In this document: one piece after another, positions 8,026 to 51,003 of the stretch | How positions within the stretch are numbered: position 1 is the first letter of the stretch | Layout of the letters: each line of letters starts with the position of its first letter | From: an uncultured Saprospiraceae bacterium | GTDB taxonomy: Bacteria; Bacteroidota; Bacteroidia; Chitinophagales; Saprospiraceae | Assembly (NCBI GenBank): GCA_937872385.1 | Contig: CALMSO010000047.1 | Span: forward strand, 78,660-142,659 | Length of the DNA stretch: 64,000 nucleotides | Direction of reading: 5' to 3' | Notes under the pieces: generated by a model | What the model saw: the letters and a program-made list of their open reading frames with translations, nothing else | The model's database searches: none | Told to the model about the DNA's origin: nothing | Made by a program: the position numbers and the translations under genes

Positions 8026-9561
8026 ATGAAAATACAAACGCTTACACTTTTTTTGTGTTGCCTGCTGGCCGTGGGCTACGCCCAGGAGTCGGATTCGCGG
8101 CATTCTATCGGAGCGAAGTTGCTCTTTATTGACTACGGGCGGCCCAATTCGATAGATACCCTGAGTATCACCAATGGTTTGGAGCTGATGTACAGTTACC
8201 GTATCAATGATTTAATCAGCGTTGCCGTGCCGCTCAAGGTCGGCGTCGCCAATGTAATGGGCGATATCAACAACCGCAATGTGACCAGCATAGACGGTGT
8301 GCTGCATTTCAATTTTCTGAAACCGAGTAGCCCGGTAATTCCTTACATCTTTGGTGGGGCAGGTATTGTAGCCGAGCGCGATGCGGGTTCCAACCTGCAA
8401 ATTCCCGGCGGCTTAGGTGCGCACTTTCGCGTAGCTGGCAATTCCTATATCAATGTGCAGGGCGAATTTCGCTATTCGATGCAGGAAGATCGCAACAACG
8501 CTCAATTGGGCGTAGGCTACATTTATCGCCTTGGCAAACAAAAAGATAGCGACGGCGACGGCATCCCTGATGCATTAGACGAGTGCCCCAACGAACCGGG
8601 GCCTAAGGCCACCAATGGCTGCCCCGACCGCGATGGCGACGGCGTGCCGGATAAGGACGATCGCTGCCCCGACCAGCCCGGCCCAGCGGCTACTAACGGC
8701 TGCCCGGATACGGATGGGGACGGTTTCCCCGATCACCTCGACGAGTGCCCGACCATACCTGGCACCTTACGCGGCTGCCCCGATAGCGATGGCGACGGCA
8801 TTCCGGACAAAGACGACCAGTGCCCAGATGAGCCGGGTCCCGCTGCTACCAAAGGTTGCCCCGACCGCGATGGCGACGGTGTGCCCGATCGTTTTGATGA
8901 TTGTCCGGACGAACCCGGCCCCGCTGCCAACAATGGCTGTCCGGTAGCCGACCGCGATAACGACGGTATTCCCGATATCAATGACCGCTGCCCCGACGAG
9001 CCAGGCCCGGCAGCAACCCAGGGCTGCCCCGACCGCGATGGCGATGGCGTACCAGATATTGACGACCGCTGCCCCGATACGCCTGGCCCAGCAGAAACCC
9101 GCGGCTGCCCCGATAGCGATGGCGATGGCGTACCCGATGATATAGACCTCTGTCCGGATGAACCCGGCTTGGCCAGCAATAAAGGCTGCCCAGAACTAAA
9201 AGCCGAGGTAAAAGAAGTGCTGGAATTTGCGATGCGAGCCGTGCAATTTGAAACTGGACGCGCTACCCTCAAGGCAGAATCTTATCCAGTACTCGACCAG
9301 ATTATCCAGATTATGCGGCAATACCCTGTGTATGCACTGCGTATTTCCGGGCATACCGACAATGTAGGCGCTGACAGTCGTAACCAAATTTTGTCCGAGC
9401 AACGCGCTAAAGCTTGTTATGAATACCTCGCTTCCTCTGGCATTGTTGCCGACCGGATGAGTTTTGCTGGCTTTGGTCGTACGCGTCCTATTGCTGATAA
9501 TAACACTACGGAAGGACGTCGCCTCAATCGGCGCGTGGAGTTTGAACTGTATATAAAGTAA
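8026..9561 (+). CDS. OmpA family outer membrane protein with thrombospondin type 3 repeats
   Basis: It has a signal peptide, an N-terminal beta-barrel-like region, eight DxDGDGxPDxxDxCPdePGP repeats and a C-terminal OmpA domain (ISGHTDNVGADSRNQILSEQRAKA, NRRVEFEL). Confidence 0.9.
   Translation: MKIQTLTLFLCCLLAVGYAQESDSRHSIGAKLLFIDYGRPNSIDTLSITNGLELMYSYRINDLISVAVPLKVGVANVMGDINNRNVTSIDGVLHFNFLKPSSPVIPYIFGGAGIVAERDAGSNLQIPGGLGAHFRVAGNSYINVQGEFRYSMQEDRNNAQLGVGYIYRLGKQKDSDGDGIPDALDECPNEPGPKATNGCPDRDGDGVPDKDDRCPDQPGPAATNGCPDTDGDGFPDHLDECPTIPGTLRGCPDSDGDGIPDKDDQCPDEPGPAATKGCPDRDGDGVPDRFDDCPDEPGPAANNGCPVADRDNDGIPDINDRCPDEPGPAATQGCPDRDGDGVPDIDDRCPDTPGPAETRGCPDSDGDGVPDDIDLCPDEPGLASNKGCPELKAEVKEVLEFAMRAVQFETGRATLKAESYPVLDQIIQIMRQYPVYALRISGHTDNVGADSRNQILSEQRAKACYEYLASSGIVADRMSFAGFGRTRPIADNNTTEGRRLNRRVEFELYIK
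8551..9181 (+). repeat. in-frame coding repeats (8 thrombospondin type 3-like calcium-binding units of about 25 aa) inside the OmpA gene
   Basis: DSDGDGIPD, DRDGDGVPD, DTDGDGFPD, DSDGDGIPD, DRDGDGVPD, DRDNDGIPD, DRDGDGVPD and DSDGDGVPD, each followed by a CPDEPGP-type segment. Confidence 0.85.
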
Positions 9562-10946: not shown

Positions 10947-11882
10947 GTGAAAAAAGTACTCATCACCGGTGCGGCCGGTTTTCTGGGTTCGCACCTTTGC
11001 GACCGCTTCATCCGCGAAGGATACCACGTCATAGCCATGGACAATTTGCTCACCGGAAGCATGGATAATATCCAGCATTTGTTGCCGCTTGAGCATTTCG
11101 AATTTTATCATCATGATGTAACGAAATACGTACACCTCCCGGGACAGCTCGATTATATTTTGCACTTTGCCTCGCCAGCCAGCCCAATTGATTATCTGAA
11201 AATGCCTATTCAAACGCTGAAAGTAGGCGCTTTGGGCACGCACAATCTGCTCGGACTTGCTTTAGCCAAAAAGGCGCGCATTTTGGTGGCTTCTACCTCT
11301 GAGGTGTATGGCGATCCGCTGCTGCACCCACAGTCGGAGGAGTACTGGGGCAATGTGAACCCGGTGGGGCCGCGTGGCGTATATGACGAAGCGAAGCGTT
11401 TCTTAGAGGCAATCACGATGGCGTATCACAATTTTCATGGCGTAGAAACCCGAATTGTGCGTATTTTCAATACCTACGGCCCCCGGATGCGGGTGGAGGA
11501 CGGACGCGCGCTGCCAGCGTTTTTTTCGCAGGCTATTCGCGGCGAAGGCTTGACGGTGTTTGGCGATGGCTCACAAACGCGCTCTTTTTGTTATGTGGAC
11601 GACCTCGTGGAAGGCATTTACCGCCTATTGCTAAGTGACTATCACCTGCCGGTGAATATTGGCAATCCGGATGAAATCACGGTGAAGCAATTAGCAGAGG
11701 AAATTCTGGCATTAGTCAATAATCCTGCGGCCAAAATCATTTACAAACCTTTGCCTGCCGATGACCCAAAGGTGCGCCAGCCTGATATTACCAAAGCCCG
11801 CGAAATACTTGGCTGGGAGCCTCGTGTGCCTCGCGTTGAAGGCTTGGTGACTACGCATGATTATTTTCGCAAGGTGGTGTGA
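10947..11882 (+). CDS. UDP-glucuronate decarboxylase (UDP-xylose synthase)
   Basis: Motifs [26 protein letters not shown] and YDEAKR (SDR Y-x3-K). The protein is about 310 aa. Confidence 0.85.
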
Positions 11883-11928
11883 TGGGGTTGATAGGGGGAT
11901 GGGGTTGATAGGGGAATAGGGAAATAAG
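11881..11928 (+). repeat. G-rich tandem unit array (family A) abutting the stop codon
   Basis: GATGGGGTTGATAGGGG occurs twice, followed by AATAGGGAAATAAG. The UXS stop TGA (11880-11882) is part of the first unit. Confidence 0.85.
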
Positions 11929-11940
11929 AAAAAAAATTGT

Positions 11941-12351
11941 ATGTATTCTTTTGATTTTCAGAAGCGTGTGCGCTATGGCGAAACAGATCAGATGGGTTAT
12001 TTGTACTATGGCAATTATGCGCAATACTACGAAATCGGGCGGGTGGAGATGCTGCGCTCATTAGGGCTGACCTATCGGGAAATGGAGCAGGAGCACGGCA
12101 TATTGATGCCTGTCATGTCATTAGAAATGCGCTTTGTCCGTCCGGCATATTATGACGAATTGCTGACGATTCGAACCACTTTGCGGCACTTGCCGGACAC
12201 GGTCATCCGCTTCTACGTCGAAATTTTTAACGAAAAAAAGAAGTTGATAAACGGCGGAAATGTTAAATTGTGCTTTGTAACGGCTTCAACTGGAAAAACC
12301 ATCGCCGCCCCTGAATTTTTATTAGCGAAATTGCGACCTTATTTTGAATAA
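11941..12351 (+). CDS. acyl-CoA thioesterase, 4HBT/YbgC family
   Basis: Hotdog-fold N-terminal motif RVRYGETDQMGYLYYGNYAQYYE. The protein is 136 aa. Confidence 0.8.
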   Translation: MYSFDFQKRVRYGETDQMGYLYYGNYAQYYEIGRVEMLRSLGLTYREMEQEHGILMPVMSLEMRFVRPAYYDELLTIRTTLRHLPDTVIRFYVEIFNEKKKLINGGNVKLCFVTASTGKTIAAPEFLLAKLRPYFE

Positions 12352-30050: not shown

Positions 30051-30092
30051 AGTTTTATTATAAAAAATGTGATTTCAAACCGTCGAGCACAA

Positions 30093-30187
30093 TAATAGAC
30101 TTTAGATAATAGATGATAGATTTTAGACCCCTTTAACTTATTCCCCTATTCATCCCATTCCCTTATATCCCTATTTTTCCTATTCTC
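30093..30187 (-). repeat. composite tandem-unit array: family A (G-rich on the minus strand, 30128-30187) followed by family D heptamers (30093-30127)
   Basis: The plus strand reads TAATAGA CTTTAGA TAATAGA TGATAGA TTTTAGA, then CCCC..TTCCCCTATTCATCCCATTCCCTTATATCCCTATTTTTCCTATTCTC. It lies between corA and the next minus-strand gene. Confidence 0.8.
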
Positions 30188-30220
30188 AAAATAGCAATGT
30201 TCCATCATTTATAACGTTTT

Positions 30221-40778: not shown

Positions 40779-40904
40779 GCAATCAGTGCCCGTTTGGTAA
40801 AATTGATATCTTGGCTTAGCACAATTGCCCGGTATCCTCCAAATGCTCGGACGTAATTGTTTTTTTAGTAAAAAAACACAAATCACTGATTATCAACAGA
40901 TAAA

Positions 40905-40963
40905 TTTTAGATAATAGCCGATAGAAGTTAGATGCGGTCATCCCTCTAAACCCTCTAAACCCT
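40905..40963 (-). repeat. composite array: family B (GGGTTTAGAG x2 on the minus strand, 40942-40963) then family D heptamers (40905-40932)
   Basis: The plus strand reads TTTTAGA TAATAGC CGATAGA AGTTAGA ... CCCTCTAAA CCCTCTAAA CCCT. Confidence 0.8.
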
Positions 40964-41028
40964 GTTCCAAATAACCAATAACAATATCCCATTATTTATC
41001 TCGAAATCCGATACTCAAAAATAAAATT

Positions 41029-41931
41029 ATGGTTAGTCGCATCCATCGAATAATGCTGTTTTTCGTGCCACTGTTGTTGATTTCCCTAACCGCCTGCCAA
41101 AACGAGCAAAAACAGCAACAGCAAGCCATTGGGCGGCTGGCTCAAGCCTTAGACAAACAATTTGAGGTCGGGCAGGCCGAAGCATTGCTTACGCTTTACG
41201 AGGTTTATTTACAAAAATATGGTGCGGATGAAGCGTACCAATACGATAAAGCCAGATTAATGAGCAGACTTGGGCAGCACGAACCCGCCACGCGCCTGCT
41301 GTTGGAATGGTTGCAAACCTACCCTACGAGTGCGCGCGCGCCCGAAGCAGCGCTGCTGCTGGCCGCTGTCTATGAAGAAAAATTGCAGGCGTATGAGGCA
41401 GCTCGCAGTGTTTACCAAATGGCGCAACAAGTTTATTCAGCAGATGAGACGCTCCAAGCGCGTACGAAAACCGAGTGGGGCACCTTCGACGAGCGCATGC
41501 AACAACTGCGTGCGCAGGTATTCAATGAGAGGACGGGGCGCGTGAATGCTCAGGCGGCACAGGAATTCATCTGGTCAGCGGAAGTGCTGGCGACTTTCTT
41601 ACCAAAGGATACACGGGCACCGGAGTTGCTTTTTCAGGCAGGCGATGTGGCAGGCGCTATGGGCGATTATGCCCAATGCCTCCAGCTTTTTGAGCGGATT
41701 AATGAGCAATACCCCGCTTATGAAAAGTCGGCGCAGGTGCTGTTTATGCGGGCTTTTACGCTCGACGACCGGCTGGGGCAGTTGGAGGCAGCCAAAGAAT
41801 TGTACGAAGCTTTTTTAGAAAAATACCCGGACGACGAATTAGCCGCCAGCGCCCGTTTTTCCTTAGAAAACCTTGGCAAAAGCGAGGAAGAAATTATCCA
41901 GGAATTTTTGCGCAAGCAATCGGAGCAATAA
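41029..41931 (+). CDS. tetratricopeptide-repeat lipoprotein
   Basis: Lipobox LISLTAC. Helical repeats rich in A/L/Y/Q look TPR-like (YEAARSVYQMAQQVY, AAKELYEAFLEKYPDDE). Confidence 0.55.
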   Translation: MVSRIHRIMLFFVPLLLISLTACQNEQKQQQQAIGRLAQALDKQFEVGQAEALLTLYEVYLQKYGADEAYQYDKARLMSRLGQHEPATRLLLEWLQTYPTSARAPEAALLLAAVYEEKLQAYEAARSVYQMAQQVYSADETLQARTKTEWGTFDERMQQLRAQVFNERTGRVNAQAAQEFIWSAEVLATFLPKDTRAPELLFQAGDVAGAMGDYAQCLQLFERINEQYPAYEKSAQVLFMRAFTLDDRLGQLEAAKELYEAFLEKYPDDELAASARFSLENLGKSEEEIIQEFLRKQSEQ

Positions 41932-43188: not shown

Positions 43189-43238
43189 CGTTGTTGTTTT
43201 ATGGTTTCAAAGTTTCACTGTTGTATGGCTATATGTTT

Positions 43239-43294
43239 CCCCCTATTCCCCCTATTCCCCCTATTCCCCCTATTCCCCCCATTCAACCCATCCC
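43239..43294 (-). repeat. family A array: four perfect GGGGGAATA units on the minus strand plus a GGGATGGGTTGAATGG core
   Basis: The plus strand has CCCCCTATT x4 (43239-43274), then CCCCCC ATTCAACCCATCCC. It begins 2 nt downstream of the LolA-like stop and lies 50 nt upstream of the permease ATG. Confidence 0.9.
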
Positions 43295-44052: not shown

Positions 44053-44132
44053 TGTTTTTTGTTTGTTTATTGTTATTTGTATTCAATTGATTTTCAAAAA
44101 TTTATGACTGAACGGTTTCGTGGTTGCGTAGT

Positions 44133-44255
44133 TATTCCCCAATTTGTCCTATTTCCCCATTCAACCCATCAATCCATTTCCCCTATACACCCTATTCCCC
44201 CTATACCCCTATTCCCCCATACACCCCATACACCCTATTCCCCCCCTATCCTATA
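44133..44255 (-). repeat. family A array (G-rich on the minus strand), overlapping the last codons of the TetR gene
   Basis: The plus strand has C-rich units TTATTCCCC, CCCTATACA, CCCTATTCC, CCCTATACC, CCTATTCCC, CCATACACC and others. The TetR C-terminus YRIGGE is encoded by repeat units. Confidence 0.85.
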
Positions 44256-44825
44256 TCTTTCCAAAATCAATTCTTTCATTACCGCCAAGGGATAGTCTTC
44301 GCCCAATTGCAAATATTGCAGCATCACGCCGTCGGTCATAGCACTGTAGAGCAGCAGCTCCCCCAGTGGATTCGCTACACCGAGGCGCTCAAACAAAGGC
44401 AGCATTTTAGCAATTGCTGCTTCTTCCTGGACTTTGGTGACGGGGCGCAGCATCTCCTGCACATCGGGCTGAAAGGCCAAAGATGTAAGCAGTCGCCAAT
44501 TGTGCTCGTTGGATTGTACCCAAGCGACCGTGCGGTTGAGTAGGGCTTCCAACTGCTCGAAAGGCACTTCGCTGACCGCCAGCGCGTCGTCCAGCAGCTG
44601 CATACCGGTAGCAATCACCTCGGTCATAATTTCAACCAACAGGGCTTCCTTGCTCTCGAAGTAATTGTACATCAAGCCTTTAGAAACACCCGCCGCTTTC
44701 GCAATGGCACTGATGGAAGTGCTGTGATAACCTTGTCGGCCAAACAACTCCAGCGCCGTTTGCTTGATCGTATCTCGGCTTCGCTGCCGGATGGACTCAA
44801 ATTGTTCTTTTGTTTTGGGCGACAT
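44235..44825 (-). CDS. TetR/AcrR family transcriptional regulator
   Basis: The N-terminal HTH (ALELFGRQGYHSTSISAIAKAAGVSKGLMYNYFESKEAL) is present. Confidence 0.85.
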   Translation of the reverse strand: MSPKTKEQFESIRQRSRDTIKQTALELFGRQGYHSTSISAIAKAAGVSKGLMYNYFESKEALLVEIMTEVIATGMQLLDDALAVSEVPFEQLEALLNRTVAWVQSNEHNWRLLTSLAFQPDVQEMLRPVTKVQEEAAIAKMLPLFERLGVANPLGELLLYSAMTDGVMLQYLQLGEDYPLAVMKELILERYRIGGE

Positions 44826-45020: not shown

Positions 45021-46172
45021 TCAAATGCTCAAAGCGGCTATCAATCGCCGAACAAATTCCTCACCTTTTGCCAACTGCTCCTTGCTGATAAATTCATTGG
45101 CCCGATGCGCTTGCGCAATATTGCCCGGCCCGCAGATAACCGTTTGAAAACCACCTTCGGCAAACTGGCCTGCCTCGGCCGCGTAGGCTACTGTTTGTAA
45201 TAGGTGCTGCCCGCTAAGCTGACGAATGAAGTCCACCACTGGCAGGTGTTCCGGCGTATCCAAAGGTGGCACTGGCGGATGGTGCTCGGTGGTGATGATG
45301 CGAAAACCCGGATAGCGTTGGCGCAGGAACAACTCCCGCTCGCGGCAGTGAGTCTCGAAATCTGCCAAAATATTTGCTACTGAATCTTGCGGAATGACCC
45401 GTACATCCCAGTGAAAAGAGCAGCGATCGGCAATGACATTGGGTGCAATACCCCCTTGAATAACCCCCGAATGCAGCGAAGAGTGGGGCGGCGTAAAGCG
45501 CTCGTCCGTATGTCCGGCCGCAATCAACTGCTCCATTTTGTCTTCCAGCCACAGGATGAGGCGGGCCGCTTCGTGCACGGCGCTGACCTCCTGCCGAATG
45601 CGGCTACTGTGCCCCGCAGAGCCATGCACCGTAGTTTCAAAAATGCAGATACCTTTCTGACCCACAACGGCTTGTAACATAGACGGCTCGCCAATGATGG
45701 CGTAGGCAGGTTGCTCGGTATAGCTAGCCTTAATGTGCTCGACCAAAGCGGGCCCGGCGAGGCAACCAATTTCTTCATCATAAGAAAAAGCAAAATAAAT
45801 CGGCTTTTGCAAAGGCGCTTGCAGCATTTCCGGGAGGCAGGCTAAGCAACAGGCTATAAAGCCCTTCATATCTGCCGAGCCACGGGCATAGAGTTTATCG
45901 GCTTTTTCTACTAAGGTGAAAGGATCCGTTTGCCAATCTTGCCCCGCTACGGGCACCACATCCATGTGCCCCGACAGGATCACGCCGCCATCTACCGCCG
46001 GCCCGATGCGGCAGTGCAAGGAGGCTTTCGTACCGTCTTCGTTGGGCACGAGGTGATACTCCACGCCATGTTGGCGCAGGTACGCTTGTATCCATTGCAA
46101 AATCGTCAAGTTACTCTGACCACCCAACACTGGAAAAGCAACCAGTTGGGAAAGAATTTCAATAACATTCAT
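45021..46172 (-). CDS. M20 family metallopeptidase / acetylornithine deacetylase (ArgE-like)
   Basis: Motifs SGHMDVVPV and RGSADMKG. Start taken at MNVIEIL. Confidence 0.75.
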   Translation of the reverse strand: MNVIEILSQLVAFPVLGGQSNLTILQWIQAYLRQHGVEYHLVPNEDGTKASLHCRIGPAVDGGVILSGHMDVVPVAGQDWQTDPFTLVEKADKLYARGSADMKGFIACCLACLPEMLQAPLQKPIYFAFSYDEEIGCLAGPALVEHIKASYTEQPAYAIIGEPSMLQAVVGQKGICIFETTVHGSAGHSSRIRQEVSAVHEAARLILWLEDKMEQLIAAGHTDERFTPPHSSLHSGVIQGGIAPNVIADRCSFHWDVRVIPQDSVANILADFETHCRERELFLRQRYPGFRIITTEHHPPVPPLDTPEHLPVVDFIRQLSGQHLLQTVAYAAEAGQFAEGGFQTVICGPGNIAQAHRANEFISKEQLAKGEEFVRRLIAALSI

Positions 46173-46360
46173 GTGTTTTCCACGCATTTGTTTTGTTTTC
46201 GATTCGTATTTGCTTATCAATCTTCCAGTAAACCACTACTTCAATAAACCGTTCACCCTTAATCCAGAAATTTGTAGCTTTGCCATGCAAGATACCAAAC
46301 CCGGCAAAATAGACAAGTCATCAAACGCGTTTAGAAAGCTGGCTGTGTAAATCAGTAAAC

Positions 46361-47272
46361 ATGAGTGTGATTGTAAAAAACCTGACCAAAATATATGGCA
46401 CCCAGCGCGCAGTGGACCATGTGAGCTTTGAGGCTAAACCCGGCGAAGTGCTGGGATTTCTGGGTCCAAATGGTGCAGGCAAGACCACCACGATGAAAAT
46501 CGTGACCTGCTTCATCCCCCAAACCGACGGCGAAGTGCGCGTTTGTGGCTACGATGTGGCCAAAGATACTATGGCCGTGCGGCAGCAAATTGGTTATCTG
46601 CCAGAGCACAACCCTTTGTACAACGACTTGTACGTCAAGGAGTATCTTGGTTTTGTAGCCCGCTTGCACGGGTTGCGCAATACCCGCCAGCGCGTGGACG
46701 AGCTGATACAAATGACCGGGCTGGAGCGCGAGCAAGGCAAAATCATCGGTGCTTTGTCCAAAGGTTATCGGCAACGCGTAGGGCTGGCCCAAGCCATGCT
46801 GCACGATCCGCAGGTGCTGATTCTGGATGAACCTACATCTGGGCTGGACCCCAATCAATTGGCAGAAATTCGCAACCTGATTAAACAATTGGGCCGGCAA
46901 AAAACGGTCATTTTTTCTACGCACATCATGCAGGAGGTGCAGGCGCTTTGCGACCGGGTTGTCATTATCAACCGAGGTAAAATTGTAGCCGACGATTCTA
47001 TCGAAACTTTACAAAACCGCATCAAGGGCGCGACCATTATTACAGTAGAATTTGCAGAAAAAACAGATAAAAAGCTGCTGTCTGGTATCTCTGGCGTGCA
47101 ACAAGTGAAAGACCTCGGCAAAAATCGGTGGCAGCTCATCGCGCCAGCTACTACCGACATACGGTCGGGCATAAGTGCTTTTGCCGCTAAGCACCAATTG
47201 ACCTTACTTGAAATGCGCAAGGAAACCTCCAGCGTGGAAGATGTGTTTCACCAATTGACTGCTGACCAGTAA
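46361..47272 (+). CDS. gldA: gliding motility-associated ABC transporter ATP-binding subunit
   Basis: Walker A GPNGAGKTTT, signature LSKGYRQR, Walker B LILDEP. gldF and gldG lie downstream. Confidence 0.75.
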   Translation: MSVIVKNLTKIYGTQRAVDHVSFEAKPGEVLGFLGPNGAGKTTTMKIVTCFIPQTDGEVRVCGYDVAKDTMAVRQQIGYLPEHNPLYNDLYVKEYLGFVARLHGLRNTRQRVDELIQMTGLEREQGKIIGALSKGYRQRVGLAQAMLHDPQVLILDEPTSGLDPNQLAEIRNLIKQLGRQKTVIFSTHIMQEVQALCDRVVIINRGKIVADDSIETLQNRIKGATIITVEFAEKTDKKLLSGISGVQQVKDLGKNRWQLIAPATTDIRSGISAFAAKHQLTLLEMRKETSSVEDVFHQLTADQ

Positions 47273-47314
47273 AAAACCATTGATTGGCTTGTTGCAAAAC
47301 CTTGATTATCCTAT

Positions 47315-47989
47315 ATGAAATTCAGATTTTGGCTACTTTCTGTTGCTTGTTTGTTCATTATCGGGCGGGCCGCTGCCTATTCCGACAGCCTATTGTTGAC
47401 CAAAAACTTCAAGTTTCAGGATGGTATCTATCTGGATTTTACCGATTTGCAACAAAACCGCCCCACCTACCGCTGGGAAGAAGTAAGCGCGCGCATGGCC
47501 ACCAGCGATGAAGGCTTCATTGCACAAGTAGAGCGTATCCGCAAAGACCAACAACTACTCGACCTCAGCCAAGTCTGGGGTATTTGTATCGGAGGCATTC
47601 CTTACATCCGGCTGCCGGAGGGCGAAGTAACCGAGTCAGCAACGGTATTTGCGGGTTTGCGCGTGCGCGGCAAAATTTCCTATTTCAAATACAAGACCAT
47701 CATTACCGAAATGAAAGAAGTAAAAGCCTACAATCCGCTCAATGGCCGAGCCTTTCGGCAAGGCATCGTGCCCGTGGAACGCACCGTGGAGCGCGAGCAG
47801 ATGCTGCACTGGGAAGATGGTACTATCGTGGATTTTACCGTCGCTAACTTTCTCGACTGGATCCAGGACGATCGCCAGCTCTGGCGGGCTGTGCGCGACC
47901 TATCGCCGGAGGATGCCGAAGAGAAGCTCTTTCAGTGCCTACTGATTTATGCCGATCGGAGCAAGGTGTATCTGAAAACGGGGGATTGA
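47315..47989 (+). CDS. secreted protein of unknown function
   Basis: It has a signal peptide (WLLSVACLFIIGRAAAYS). No family recognised. Confidence 0.5.
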   Translation: MKFRFWLLSVACLFIIGRAAAYSDSLLLTKNFKFQDGIYLDFTDLQQNRPTYRWEEVSARMATSDEGFIAQVERIRKDQQLLDLSQVWGICIGGIPYIRLPEGEVTESATVFAGLRVRGKISYFKYKTIITEMKEVKAYNPLNGRAFRQGIVPVERTVEREQMLHWEDGTIVDFTVANFLDWIQDDRQLWRAVRDLSPEDAEEKLFQCLLIYADRSKVYLKTGD

Positions 47990-48200
47990 TGGGGAATAGG
48001 GGTATAGGGGGTATAGGGGGAATAGGGTGTATAGGGGAATAGGGTTTAGAAGGGTTAGAAGGTAGAGGGGTTAGAGGGGGGCGAACAGCAAACAGCGAAC
48101 AGCAAATAGCGAACAGCGTCCCGCCCTAAAGTCTGGCATCTCAAAATCTGGCATCTGGCATCTATCATCTATTATCTAATATCTAAAATCTGGCATCTAA
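47981..48200 (+). repeat. four-module composite tandem-unit array (A 47981-48044, B 48042-48081, C 48081-48118, D 48132-48200)
   Basis: A is GGGGAATAG/GGGGTATAG-type units. B is GGGTTAGAA/GGGTTAGAG units. C is GCGAACA GCAAACA GCGAACA GCAAATA GCGAACA. D is TCTGGCA TCTCAAAA TCTGGCA TCTGGCA TCTATCA TCTATTA TCTAATA TCTAAAA TCTGGCA TCTAAAA. Confidence 0.9.
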
Positions 48201-48225
48201 AAAATTTAAAAACAAGCAGAATCGT

Positions 48226-48957
48226 ATGCGCAGTATTTTTCTCAAGGAAGTGAATACTTTTTTTAGTTCGTTAATTGGCTATATCGTCATCGGGGTGTTT
48301 CTTACGGCGCTGGGATTGGTGTTGTTTGTGTTTCCTGACACCAGTTTATTACAATATAATTATGCCACACTCGATCAGTTATTTAGTGTAGCGCCCATGA
48401 TTTTTGCTTTTTTGATTCCGGCTATTACTATGCGCTCCTTTGCCGAAGAGCAGCAAACCGGCACCATCGAACTATTGGCGACCAAACCGGTGAGTGACTT
48501 AGCCATCGTGCTGGGTAAATTTTTTGCCTGTCTTATGTTAGTCGTTTTCGCTATTCTACCTACGCTATTGTATTATTACACGGTGTATCAACTCGGTGCA
48601 CCCAAGGGCAATCTCGATTCGGGCGCTATTGCTGGTTCTTACATTGGGCTGGTGCTGCTCGGCGGCGCGTTTGTGTCTATCGGTTTGTTCGCTTCTTCGC
48701 TCACAGCCAATCAGATTGTCGCTTTTATTTTCGCTACATTTCTGTGTTTTTTCATTCACTGGGGCTTCGATTTATTTAGTCGGCTACCCATTTTTGTTGG
48801 CAAATCCGATGTGCTGGTACAAATGCTCGGTATAGAATATCATTACAAATCCATTAGCCGGGGCATCATAGATTCGCGGGATGTTATTTACTTTATTTCA
48901 CTCACTGCATTTTTTATTATATTAACACTCACTTCAATGGAAAGGCGAAAATGGTAA
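48226..48957 (+). CDS. gldF: gliding motility-associated ABC transporter permease
   Basis: N-terminal IFLKEVNTFFSSLIGYIVIGVFL, an ABC-2-type six-TM layout, and position between gldA and gldG. Confidence 0.75.
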   Translation: MRSIFLKEVNTFFSSLIGYIVIGVFLTALGLVLFVFPDTSLLQYNYATLDQLFSVAPMIFAFLIPAITMRSFAEEQQTGTIELLATKPVSDLAIVLGKFFACLMLVVFAILPTLLYYYTVYQLGAPKGNLDSGAIAGSYIGLVLLGGAFVSIGLFASSLTANQIVAFIFATFLCFFIHWGFDLFSRLPIFVGKSDVLVQMLGIEYHYKSISRGIIDSRDVIYFISLTAFFIILTLTSMERRKW

Positions 48958-49192
48958 TGTGAATTATTATGAAATTATTACACAAATTAAACCACAAAAT
49001 ATTAAATGTAAAATGTAAAAGTATCGCACGATAAATAATGGAACATTGTTATTTAAAAAATCTTGGTCGTGGGTCAAATCAGTTGTTTTACTTTTTAGAT
49101 GTTGCAAACCTTAAAGATTTATGACATTTTATACACCATTCTGACCCATTACCAAAATTTTGATAAAAATTTCATTGCCAATTATTCGTGTT

Positions 49193-49222
49193 GCGAAAAG
49201 CGAACAGCCAATAGCAAACAGC
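49193..49222 (+). repeat. heptamer array (family C)
   Basis: GCGAAAA GCGAACA GCCAATA GCAAACA GC, located 45 nt upstream of the gldG start. Confidence 0.75.
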
Positions 49223-49266
49223 ATTATAATAACTTACAACAGATATTTACTTTTTGACAGGAAAAT

Positions 49267-51003
49267 ATGGCTGACAAAAAAAAACATATCAACCCTAAGC
49301 GGGTGCAGTCGCTACTCAATCTGGCGCTGCTTTCTGGTATTATTATTTTTATTAACATTCTGGCTAACGCACGATTGGGCGAGCGGGCTTTTTATACTAC
49401 CCTCGATCTGACGGAAGACAAGCGCTTCACGCTCACGCCCACCACCAAAAACCTGCTGCGTGAGCTGGATGATGTAGTGTATGTGCGCGTTTTGCTCGAC
49501 GGCAATTTTCCGGCAGGATTCAAACGCCTGCAAACCGCCACCCGCGAGTTGCTCGATGATTTTCGCAGTGTCTCCGGCTATATAGAATACGCTTTTGAAG
49601 ACCCCTCCGTGGGAAGTACCGAAGAGATAAACGCCCGGCGAGAACTGCTGCGCGAAGAAGGCGTGGTGCCTGTGTCCTTGCGCGTGAAAGACAAAGACCA
49701 GACCAGCGTACAATTAATTTATCCTTACGCCCAGGTTTTTTATAAAGGGCGCAGTACCAATGTAAAATTGCTCGGCAACGAAGTGCCCGGAATGCCCCCG
49801 GATATTGTACTCAACAACTCCATCGCGTTGCTCGAATATCAAATTGCCAATGCCATTCAGAAACTCCGCGCGCCGCTGCGGCCGGTCGTTGCCTTCACCA
49901 CTGGGCACGGTGAGCTATCACCCATTGAAACCGCCGATCTGGAAATTACCCTCCGGCAATTTTATGAAGTGGGGCGCCTGCGCCTCGATAGCTTGGTGCG
50001 CATACCCGCCGAAGAGCTGTCGGTGCTGGTGGTAGCCAAGCCGCGTGCGGGTTTCTCAGAGCAAGACAAATTTAAGATAGACCAATACGTGATGAACGGC
50101 GGCAAGGTGCTTTGGCTCATTGACCAGCTCAACGTGGATCTTGACAGCCTGCGGCGGGGTACGTTTTTTCCGCAGGAATATAATTTGCAACTCGACGACC
50201 TGCTTTTCAAATATGGCATTCGTATTCAGCCCAATCTTATCCTCGACATGCGCTGCTCTCGCATCCCCTTAGCCACTGGTATGCTGGGCAATGCTCCTCA
50301 ATTCGACTACTTTCGCTACCCGTACCATCTTGTGGTGGCGCCTACGTCCACGCATCCGATAGTGAAAGGCTTGGGTATCCTTAACTTGCTGTATGCCAGC
50401 ACAATAGACACAACCGTACGCACCAAAACCGAAGTACAAAAAACCGTTTTACTAACTTCGTCGCCCAACAGCCGCTTGCAATATATTCCGTTGGAAATGA
50501 ATTTTGACTTTTTGCGCTACGACCTCGACGCTACCAAATTTGATAAGCCGGGGCAACCCGTCGCCATGCTACTGGAAGGTATTTTTCCTTCTTTGTACGA
50601 AAACCGTGTAACGGAAGACATGCTGGCAGGTTTGCAACAGCTGAAAATGACTTTTCAGGCCCAAAGCGTGCCCACACGCATGGTAGTAGTGTCGGATGGG
50701 GATATTGCTAAAAATGGAATTGATGCGCAAAAACAATCTTACAAACCACTGGGTTTCAATGAATTTGAACAATATCAGTTTGCTAATAAAGATTTCCTGA
50801 TCAATGCGCTGGAGTACCTCGTAGATGCCAACGGCGTCATCGAAGCACGCGGCAAGGAAGTAAAACTCCGCCCGATGGATACCGTGCGCGCGCAAGCTGA
50901 GCAAACGCGCTGGCAAACGCTCAACCTGGCGGCCCCCTTAGTCTTTTTGGCACTATTTGGGATAGTGTATAACTGGCTGCGCCGGCGTCGGTTTGCCCGA
51001 TAA
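49267..51003 (+). CDS. gldG: gliding motility-associated ABC transporter substrate-binding/auxiliary protein
   Basis: N-terminal TM, then ANARLGERAFYTTLDLTEDKRFTL and a C-terminal TM (LAAPLVFLALFGIVY), which is the GldG architecture. Confidence 0.75.
   Translation: MADKKKHINPKRVQSLLNLALLSGIIIFINILANARLGERAFYTTLDLTEDKRFTLTPTTKNLLRELDDVVYVRVLLDGNFPAGFKRLQTATRELLDDFRSVSGYIEYAFEDPSVGSTEEINARRELLREEGVVPVSLRVKDKDQTSVQLIYPYAQVFYKGRSTNVKLLGNEVPGMPPDIVLNNSIALLEYQIANAIQKLRAPLRPVVAFTTGHGELSPIETADLEITLRQFYEVGRLRLDSLVRIPAEELSVLVVAKPRAGFSEQDKFKIDQYVMNGGKVLWLIDQLNVDLDSLRRGTFFPQEYNLQLDDLLFKYGIRIQPNLILDMRCSRIPLATGMLGNAPQFDYFRYPYHLVVAPTSTHPIVKGLGILNLLYASTIDTTVRTKTEVQKTVLLTSSPNSRLQYIPLEMNFDFLRYDLDATKFDKPGQPVAMLLEGIFPSLYENRVTEDMLAGLQQLKMTFQAQSVPTRMVVVSDGDIAKNGIDAQKQSYKPLGFNEFEQYQFANKDFLINALEYLVDANGVIEARGKEVKLRPMDTVRAQAEQTRWQTLNLAAPLVFLALFGIVYNWLRRRRFAR

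Follow-up and report, generated by a model that had tools for sequence, protein, structure and literature searches.

Upstream of gldF, within a 64,000-nucleotide (nt) stretch of a contig from an uncultured Saprospiraceae bacterium (CALMSO010000047.1; hereafter the window, numbered with position 1 as its first letter), the gap behind an open reading frame (ORF) of 224 residues is filled by four short tandem-repeat arrays. Their position in a gliding-motility ABC transporter operon raises the question of whether they form a control element for that operon or are there for more general reasons. A sequence-only reading of the window had proposed the former, suggesting that the array could modulate read-through, mRNA processing or the stoichiometry of the transporter subunits. 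Our analysis indicates that the tract is probably a composite repeat of the long simple sequence repeat (LSSR) or short tandemly repeated repetitive (STRR) type, one copy of families dispersed through the genome, and that it serves mainly as a spacer and not as a dedicated gldF element. A locus-specific role is not supported: five or more other gaps of the window contain arrays of these unit families, arrays are general in the intergenic DNA of Saprospiraceae, and the orthologous junctions differ. The tract also has no Rfam family, no significant fold and no length variation in one same-strain comparison. The tract may still influence read-through, processing or the stoichiometry of the subunits, because two of the modules are G-quadruplex-prone on the sense strand, and this would then be a generic property of such repeats that is not specific to gld genes.

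The architecture of the tract was as first read. Tandem Repeats Finder (TRF) and direct reading both place four adjoining arrays, modules A to D, in the 220 nt from 47981 to 48200, with periods of 9, 9, 7 and 7 and 3.6-5.4 copies each. The array had been described as filling almost the whole space between the upstream ORF and gldF, and it does occupy ~211 nt (89%) of the 236 nt that separate the stop codon from the gldF ATG (47990-48225). In module A (47991-48044 by TRF) the unit GGGGWATAG has a period of 9 and 5.3 copies, with a better match at periods 17 and 26; the earlier count of about seven units is reached by inclusion of the trailing unit and of the degenerate GGGGATTGAT at the front. 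The stop codon of the upstream ORF, TGA at 47987-47989, indeed lies inside the first array unit, GGGGATTGATGGGG. Module B (48041-48079 by TRF, unit AGGGTTAGA) has 4.4 copies, in agreement with the four units counted before. For module C (48081-48118, GCGAACA) the five heptamers correspond to 5.4 copies, although the actual periodicity is 14 nt, the match being 95% at period 14 and 80% at period 7. TRF extends module D from 48126 to 48202 with the unit ATCTNNN and periods of 7, 14, 15 and 21. Direct reading gives TCTGGCA TCTCAAAA TCTGGCA TCTGGCA TCTATCA TCTATTA TCTAATA TCTAAAA TCTGGCA TCTAA, and thus the ten units, four of them TCTGGCA, that had been reported, one unit having 8 nt. The unit-family patterns would be expected 0-0.8 times per random window.

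The base composition changes strongly along the tract. Module A consists of A17 C0 G31 T13 and module B holds 21 G and no C, so that the two are devoid of C across 100 nt and the GC skew rises to +0.8, and G makes up 8 of the 69 nt of module D. AUG does not occur in the 236-nt gap, against 3.6 expected. A hidden ORF was ruled out, as neither strand of 47990-48225 contains one of at least 40 residues. The tract is not an assembly artefact, because the same array sequence is found in independent ENA assemblies, completely in one (L081) and partially in two others (L082 and L083). The two partial contigs, which come from short-read metagenomes and the same strain, end within the array, at ~48110 in module C and at ~48055 in module B. 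Such tracts therefore act as assembly breakpoints; they interrupt short-read assemblies and can lengthen or truncate the annotated ends of ORFs.

The families that make up the tract are not confined to it. At least five other gaps of the window contain them, and whole-window TRF found arrays with similar units at 11881, 40942, 43237 and 44176. Four gaps, 11882-11941 on the plus strand and 30221-30050, 43297-43188 and 44235-44052 on the minus strand, have one common layout in the sense orientation, in which the stop codon is followed by G-rich units of 8-10 nt, then by a G-poor, A/C/T-rich leader that is often heptameric, and then by the start codon. In the gap 30051-30220, A-type units precede D-type units in the same order as upstream of gldF. 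The module B unit is found again at 40942-40963 on the minus strand, and a C-type stretch, GCGAACAGCCAATAGCAAACAGC, at ~49199-49221 upstream of gldG. Pattern counts of each unit family far exceed first-order Markov expectation; A-type dimers, for example, occur 9 times against 0.17 expected. Module A and the array at ~44180-44226 (minus strand) have exact blocks of 32 and 21 nt in common, in which even the order of variant units is the same, and module D has the exact 20-nt block ATCTATCATCTATTATCTAA in common with 30101-30120 (minus strand). The exact blocks mean that the arrays of different loci are not independent; either copying or homogenisation between loci has taken place, or one sequence preference acts on all of them.

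Comparison with related loci points in the same direction. Array statistics were taken from ~0.9 Mb of related loci, of which ~12% is non-coding, and period-7 arrays predominate there, with 74 in intergenic and 29 in coding sequence. When 89.5 kb of Saprospiraceae intergenic DNA was compared with dinucleotide shuffles, 56 arrays of period 7 were observed against a shuffled mean of 1.0 (~56-fold), 24 of period 8 against 1.0 and 9 of period 9 against 0.8. Heptamer and nonamer arrays thus fill a large share of the intergenic space of this family, with about one array in each kb of non-coding sequence. Retrieval with GldF places the organism in the Saprospiraceae, its closest relative at the species level being 88% identical in this protein. 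In 40 relatives the orthologous ORF-gldF junction measures -19 to 175 nt, with a median of ~50 nt, and in many of them only -19 to 10 nt. About one third of these junctions have arrays, and their units (GAAATNT and its complement, GGAGGAT, CCGAACA, ACCAGTA, CTAATCA and others) are unrelated to those of the window; none of the 80 related loci contains units of the A type. Conservation of the array across orthologous junctions is thereby ruled out. As these junctions hold other units or none, gldF is not in need of the array, and the short junctions, the unrelated units and the absence of the A type show the gldF array to be an expansion of recent date, particular to this species, at a junction that elsewhere works without an array. 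Heptamers of the GAAATNT/AAAATGT type stand in the ORF-gldF gap of the closest relatives (L001, L002, L005, L006 and L008) and downstream of gldF in the window (48996-49020); unit families seem to outlast individual arrays.

Where an array lies relative to the genes has a strong bearing on its composition. Between co-directional genes, arrays that come within 15 nt of a stop codon have more G than C in 17 cases and more C than G in 6 (17 of 23 G-rich), whereas those within 15 nt of a start codon have more G than C in none and more C than G in 17, with a mean G content of 6% (Fisher p = 1.5e-6). Divergent gaps provide an independent check, and of the 7 arrays that lie there at most 40 nt from a start, 6 have more C than G on the sense strand of that gene. 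Convergent gaps have a weak bias on the stop side (6 vs 4), and gaps free of arrays show the same G/C trend to a weaker degree. The robust constraint is therefore the avoidance of G immediately upstream of the start codon. The gldF tract follows this positional rule, going from G-rich and C-free modules A and B through module C to G-poor module D. For G-rich heptamer repeats of Xanthomonas and Nostoc, Rehm et al. (2015; PMC4692102) described positions no more than 50 bp behind stop codons on the coding strand, often overlapping the stop, a location of the G-rich repeats on the non-coding strand upstream of ORFs and a preference for gaps between aligned ORFs. The repeats differed between related species and a regulatory role was not identified. 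MacGregor (2015; PMC4679880) described forward heptamer arrays just before start codons in Beggiatoaceae, Cyanobacteria and five Bacteroidetes, with composite tracts of several heptamer families in Gramella and Aequorivita. In Flavobacterium johnsoniae, low structure and adenines upstream of the start modulate initiation independent of a Shine-Dalgarno (SD) sequence, and AUG is scarce near starts (PMC6847099). The gldF initiation region (48201-48225), with A at -18 to -14, -12, -11 and -6, fits this mode of initiation. The GGGGWATA tandem recurs convergently in Cyanobacteria, Rhizobiales, other Bacteroidota, Calditrichota and other phyla. At 119 loci of other phyla it is biased to the gene on its 5' side (54 vs 28, p = 0.005), and a universal sense-strand rule is ruled out there by the 26 sense and 22 antisense arrays between co-directional genes.

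The placement of the array inside a gldA-gldF-gldG transcription unit, as first proposed, agrees with the conservation of a co-directional gldA-ORF-gldF-gldG cluster. A homologue of the 224-residue ORF (25-69% identity) precedes gldF in 49 of 80 related loci and is itself directly preceded by gldA in 42. The ORF has no Pfam or NCBIfam match and might encode an accessory part, so far undescribed, of the GldAFG transporter of Saprospiraceae. Many orthologues end in ...YLK and a stop, while the ORF of the window ends in ...YLKTGD and a stop, and this comparison shows that the leading edge of module A has run over the original stop, so that the last three codons and the new TGA come from the array. 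The -7 box of Bacteroidota promoters, TAnnTTTG, is informative in the window, as 24 of 63 perfect matches fall within the 11% of the sequence that is non-coding. One of them, TAGCTTTG, is the putative promoter of the gldA cluster. No such box exists in 47900-48230, even when one mismatch is allowed, and an internal promoter in the tract was ruled out on this ground. A sigma-70-type scan gave one 9/12 match in module D (48148-48175), but shuffled sequence yields such matches just as often (6 observed against 6.5), and the consensus is inapplicable to Bacteroidota; a sigma-54 promoter was rejected after the TGGCA-N-TTGC spacing had been inspected by eye and found not to fit. The terminator scan revealed no intrinsic-terminator-like site on the plus strand of the ORF-gldF gap. 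Given the conserved co-directional cluster, the short junctions in relatives, the box before gldA and the lack of a promoter or terminator in the gap, the tract is very probably transcribed within a gldA-ORF-gldF(-gldG) mRNA, which is supported though not proven. The features of the locus and the sister arrays are listed in Table 1.

Table 1. Features of the gldF tract, its operon and related arrays in the 64,000-nt window.
Feature	Position	Strand	Description
Module A	47981-48041	+	G-rich 8-10-nt units GGGGAATAG, GGGGTATAG, GGGTGTATAG; overlaps stop codon; TRF
Module B	48042-48080	+	GGGTT(T)AGAR units of 9-10 nt; TRF
Module C	48081-48118	+	GCGAACA/GCAAACA heptamers forming a 14-nt higher-order unit x2.6; TRF
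Linker	48119-48131	+	Non-repetitive, C-rich, TCCCGCCCTAAAG; direct reading
Module D	48132-48200	+	Ten (A)TCTNNN heptamers; G-poor, AUG-free, nearly unstructured; TRF and direct reading
gldF initiation region	48201-48225	+	A-rich, outside the array; direct reading
Candidate Bacteroidota-type -7 promoter box TAGCTTTG	46275-46282	+	Perfect TAnnTTTG, 86 nt upstream of gldA
gldA (ABC transporter ATPase)	46361-47272	+	NCBIfam TIGR03522 equivalog, 433.5 bits, cut-off 402.6
Conserved ORF, 224 aa, hydrophobic N-terminus	47315-47989	+	Last three codons (TGD) and stop from the leading edge of the array
gldF (ABC permease)	48226-48957	+	NCBIfam TIGR03518 equivalog, 321 bits, cut-off 288.5
gldG	49267-51003	+	NCBIfam TIGR03521 equivalog, 556 bits, cut-off 389.85
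Sister array	11881-11925	+	GATGGGGTTGATAGGGG x2, then GGGGAATAGGG; begins at the stop of the upstream plus-strand gene
Sister composite array	30092-30180	-	Between two minus-strand genes; degenerate G-rich units, then D-type ATCTATC ATCTATT ATCTAAA
Small B-type and D-type array	40900-40965	-	G-rich strand antisense to flanking plus-strand genes; sense strand G-poor upstream of start 41029
Sister A-type array	43237-43294	-	GGGGGAATA x5 between two minus-strand genes; G-rich on sense strand
Sister A-type array	44130-44250	-	Overlaps stop and last codons of ORF 44235-44825 (-)

The main rival to the spacer explanation takes modules A and B to be a functional G-quadruplex (G4) element, in the RNA or in the non-template DNA, placed just after the stop codon. 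By pausing RNA polymerase or blocking 3'-to-5' exonucleases it would make the gldA-ORF and gldF-gldG parts of the message differ in stability and so set the ratios of the subunits. The predicted potential is considerable. Eleven tracts of at least three G with loops of 4-7 nt lie within 47981-48081, module A contains two non-overlapping G4 motifs (47980-48011 and 48016-48044), and addition of the G4 energy term in ViennaRNA lowers the minimum free energy (MFE) of the tract from -56.7 to -77.2 kcal/mol with a four-layer quadruplex predicted in module A, so that both modules are strongly G4-prone on the sense strand according to the energy model. The window as a whole has 9 G4 motifs against 0.6 +/- 0.8 expected; 7 are intergenic and distributed over five gaps, in all of which (5/5) the G-rich strand is the sense strand and follows a stop codon. 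Such gaps number five in these 64 kb and four in 1.08 Mb of relatives, hence the G4-type family is specific to the source genome. Related repeats with 4-nt loops, GGGAATC and GGGGAYT, form quadruplexes in vitro and also lie on the coding strand within 50 bp after stops (PMC4692102). Against this, the junctions of relatives function without any G4 motif, Rehm et al. saw no regulatory role for their own repeats (PMC4692102), and the GGGGWATA arrays of other phyla have no sense preference between co-directional genes. Taken together, a dedicated G4 element would be a serious but unlikely explanation. Structure of the Watson-Crick kind, whether a REP/BIME-like intercistronic hairpin, an intrinsic terminator or attenuator, or a small RNA, is very improbable. 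The RNA from 47975 to 48235 folds with an MFE of -56.7 kcal/mol, compared with -54.3 +/- 4.1 for 200 shuffles (z = -0.58); the C-rich linker pairs with the G run that ends module B in this fold, which is no better than that of shuffles. Modules A and B reach only -1.6 kcal/mol per 100 nt, and module D with the leader (48136-48235) has an MFE of -5.5 kcal/mol, within the weakest 1% of 100-nt windows, the window mean being -22.4. An inverted-repeat search of the array was negative, and a permissive search with the Rfam 15 covariance models over 46000-50000 on both strands gave no match at E <= 1. A known RNA family was ruled out by the latter, and a hairpin, REP-like element or terminator for the gldF tract by the z-score, the lack of inverted repeats and the lack of a plus-strand terminator. 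What speaks for structure comes from relatives, where about one third of the array-bearing gaps (13 of 42, z < -3) would form strong hairpins between an array and its anti-array, including the orthologous gap upstream of gldF in a Haliscomenobacter metagenome-assembled genome (L058 5893-6000; MFE -65 kcal/mol, z = -10).

Recognition by a protein has also been considered for arrays of this sort. MacGregor proposed it for start-proximal TAACTGA heptamers (PMC4679880), and the recurrence of a few unit families at many loci of one genome with conserved orientation would suit multivalent sites for a putative sequence-specific protein that binds single-stranded RNA or DNA (e.g., of the S1, Csp or KH type) and regulates many flanking genes post-transcriptionally. 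However, the units at orthologous sites are wholly different between species, just composition and polarity being conserved, the flanking genes are functionally unrelated and no candidate protein emerged, which makes such sites improbable. The least probable explanation, and an extremely improbable one, is a contingency locus in which changes in copy number switch gldF-gldG expression and hence gliding on and off. Simple sequence repeats are prone to slippage and this array does lie upstream of a motility-associated gene, but comparison of array length among strains, which had been proposed as a check, showed identical length and copy number in the independent same-strain assembly L081, the one full comparison, with 4 mismatches in 2,775 nt (0.14%), no indels and a single difference in the array (G to A at 48002); copy number was also identical in L082 and L083 as far as these partial contigs extend. 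One metagenome scan contained no relatives closer than 84% GldF identity, so that intermediate divergence is unsampled. In addition, no -7 box lies in or beside the array and no promoter element is spaced by it, its overlap with the upstream ORF is limited to the stop and the last three codons, and arrays adjoin unrelated genes. Phase variation was also disputed by Rehm et al. for repeats of this class (PMC4692102). High-frequency phase variation is not supported.

The spacer explanation can be formulated as a series of steps. The arrays would have grown by replication slippage or unequal duplication, as suggested by the higher-order periods of 14, 15, 17, 21 and 26 nt, and the unit families, as the exact common blocks show, are common to the loci of the genome or kept similar between them. 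At the operon-internal junction between the ORF and gldF, the tract expanded, overran the ancestral stop and lengthened the ORF by three codons, as comparison with the orthologues shows. Persistence of an array would be filtered by constraints at the mRNA level: the part close to the start is G-poor, free of AUG and unstructured, as expected for SD-less initiation, and on the sense strand the part that follows the stop has abundant G and no C. The positional rule itself is established statistically, with selection as its presumed cause. Transcribed in the gldA-ORF-gldF mRNA, as the lack of an internal promoter or terminator suggests, the tract would be a long spacer with little Watson-Crick structure that parts gldF initiation from termination of the upstream ORF, and whatever quantitative effect it had on gldF would be one that such repeats exert in general. 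Several points weigh against this explanation. We infer both the co-transcription and the absence of an effect on gldF. The lineage statistics rest on gene calls made by a crude longest-ORF heuristic, and the 236-nt junction is the longest ORF-gldF junction among the loci examined. Furthermore, the recurrent unit families and the consistent sense orientation of the G-rich arrays (sense in 5/5 gaps of the window, and 7 sense vs 0 antisense in co-directional gaps when relatives are included) amount to more order than neutral slippage predicts, and such order could reflect a sequence-recognising factor or a G-quadruplex function. A broader proposal, distinctly unlikely at present, would make the fast-evolving arrays a modular punctuation of SD-less polycistronic mRNAs in Saprospiraceae and perhaps in other filamentous gliders. 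In it, a G-rich C-free module behind each stop codon, which in this genome would form quadruplexes, would end or insulate the upstream cistron, unstructured heptamers free of G and AUG would provide a landing pad for initiation on the next one, and the two modules would pair as array/anti-array hairpins in some genomes. Relative expression within operons would then be set by an architecture under selection throughout the lineage, with the gldF tract as its largest example.

If the tract is a dispersed repeat, as we favour, the class to which it belongs is already known, from the LSSRs of Mrazek, the STRRs of cyanobacteria, the G4 repeats of Rehm and the TAACTGA arrays of MacGregor. LSSRs are defined as long simple sequence repeats with units of 5-11 nt (Mrazek, Guo & Shah 2007, as presented in PMC4679880). 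The gldF tract corresponds to this definition in its tandem units of 5-11 nt, which are longer than chance would give, and in its dispersed intergenic families shared between loci. Like LSSRs and STRRs in general, it is composed of head-to-tail arrays of 7-9-nt units; the great majority of such arrays lie between genes if the unit length is not divisible by 3, heptamers dominate among them, and the families are specific to a genome, dispersed at many of its loci and without an established function. The differences are that four families are concatenated here into 220 nt, that the polarity from G-rich to G-poor is strict and that the units are others. Though a repeat of this kind, it does not belong to the named STRR families of cyanobacteria, since modules A and B have units of 8-10 nt, no module contains a cyanobacterial STRR unit such as CCCCAGT and the host belongs to Saprospiraceae. 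Modules A and B resemble the Rehm repeats in having at least four units with tracts of 3-5 G and short loops (A/T-rich and of 4 nt), in lying between co-directional ORFs on the coding strand and in their units and lengths, which vary between related species in both cases; the Rehm repeats come within 50 bp of the stop, and the gldF tract overlaps it. They differ in unit length (7 nt vs 8-10 nt) and phylum, G-poor heptamers follow in the gldF gap, and the quadruplexes of the Rehm repeats are formed in vitro whereas those of the gldF tract are predicted by an energy model. Module D is, like the TAACTGA repeats of MacGregor (2015; PMC4679880), a forward heptamer array in the leader of the downstream gene, but its unit is ATCTNNN, none of its TCTGGCA, TCTATCA, TCTATTA, TCTAATA and TCTAAAA units being TAACTGA, and it ends ~25 nt from the start codon and not a few nt from it. 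The enterobacterial REP/BIME palindromes are also a dispersed family found just after stop codons inside operons, and some array/anti-array gaps of relatives would fold like REP hairpins; REP elements are, however, inverted repeats, while the gldF tract is tandem and without palindromic structure.

No description of such arrays in Saprospiraceae was found in the literature searched, and the concatenation of four families with strict polarity is a good example of the known class. For gldF itself the tract means little, since it is no evidence of dedicated control over the operon of the gliding-motility ABC transporter. Its significance lies rather in the extension of the long-unexplained STRR/LSSR phenomenon to another filamentous, gliding lineage, and in the connection of such arrays with a testable constraint, namely SD-independent initiation that requires unstructured, G-poor leaders. 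The lineage-wide polarity and the array/anti-array hairpins of relatives are of somewhat greater interest than the gldF tract itself.

Several further observations concern the arrays of the window and of relatives. The array at 40900-40965 is the sole exception in the window to the pattern of G-rich units on the sense strand, and the leader of the gene at 41029 is still G-poor. At 44235-44825 on the minus strand lies an ORF that by eye resembles a TetR-family regulator. Repeat units (GGATAGGGGGGGAATAG, 44235-44260) encode its C-terminal ...RYRIGGE together with the TAG stop, which makes it a second case of an array that provides a C-terminus and a stop codon. The gldF-gldG gap (48958-49266, plus strand) has 309 nt and is very AT-rich (22-30% GC). 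It has AAAATGT and AAATTATTACAC arrays after the gldF stop and the C-type stretch mentioned above ~45 nt before the gldG start; -7 boxes occur in it only with one mismatch, and a 52-residue ORF is called there in L081. A tandem repeat of another kind lies in coding sequence at 8611-9138, with a period of 81 nt, 6.5 copies and a 67% match. It translates to a D/G/P/C-rich motif (CPDRDGDGVPDNDDRCPDEPG), which presumably resembles the thrombospondin type-3 calcium-binding repeats of OmpA-family proteins. In many Saprospiraceae, gaps contain an array followed by an array of reverse-complement units, a combination of which no description was found in the literature searched. These would form long hairpins with a slippery register and MFE z-scores of -4 to -11, as in L058 (5893-6000), L064 (5146-5234 and 5895-5994), L008 (2623-2708, 5939-6000 and 9560-9669), L006 (1310-1414) and L001 (8512-8613). 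In every case the G/T-rich arm of the hairpin comes first, on the 5' side, and its C/A-rich partner adjoins the start codon.

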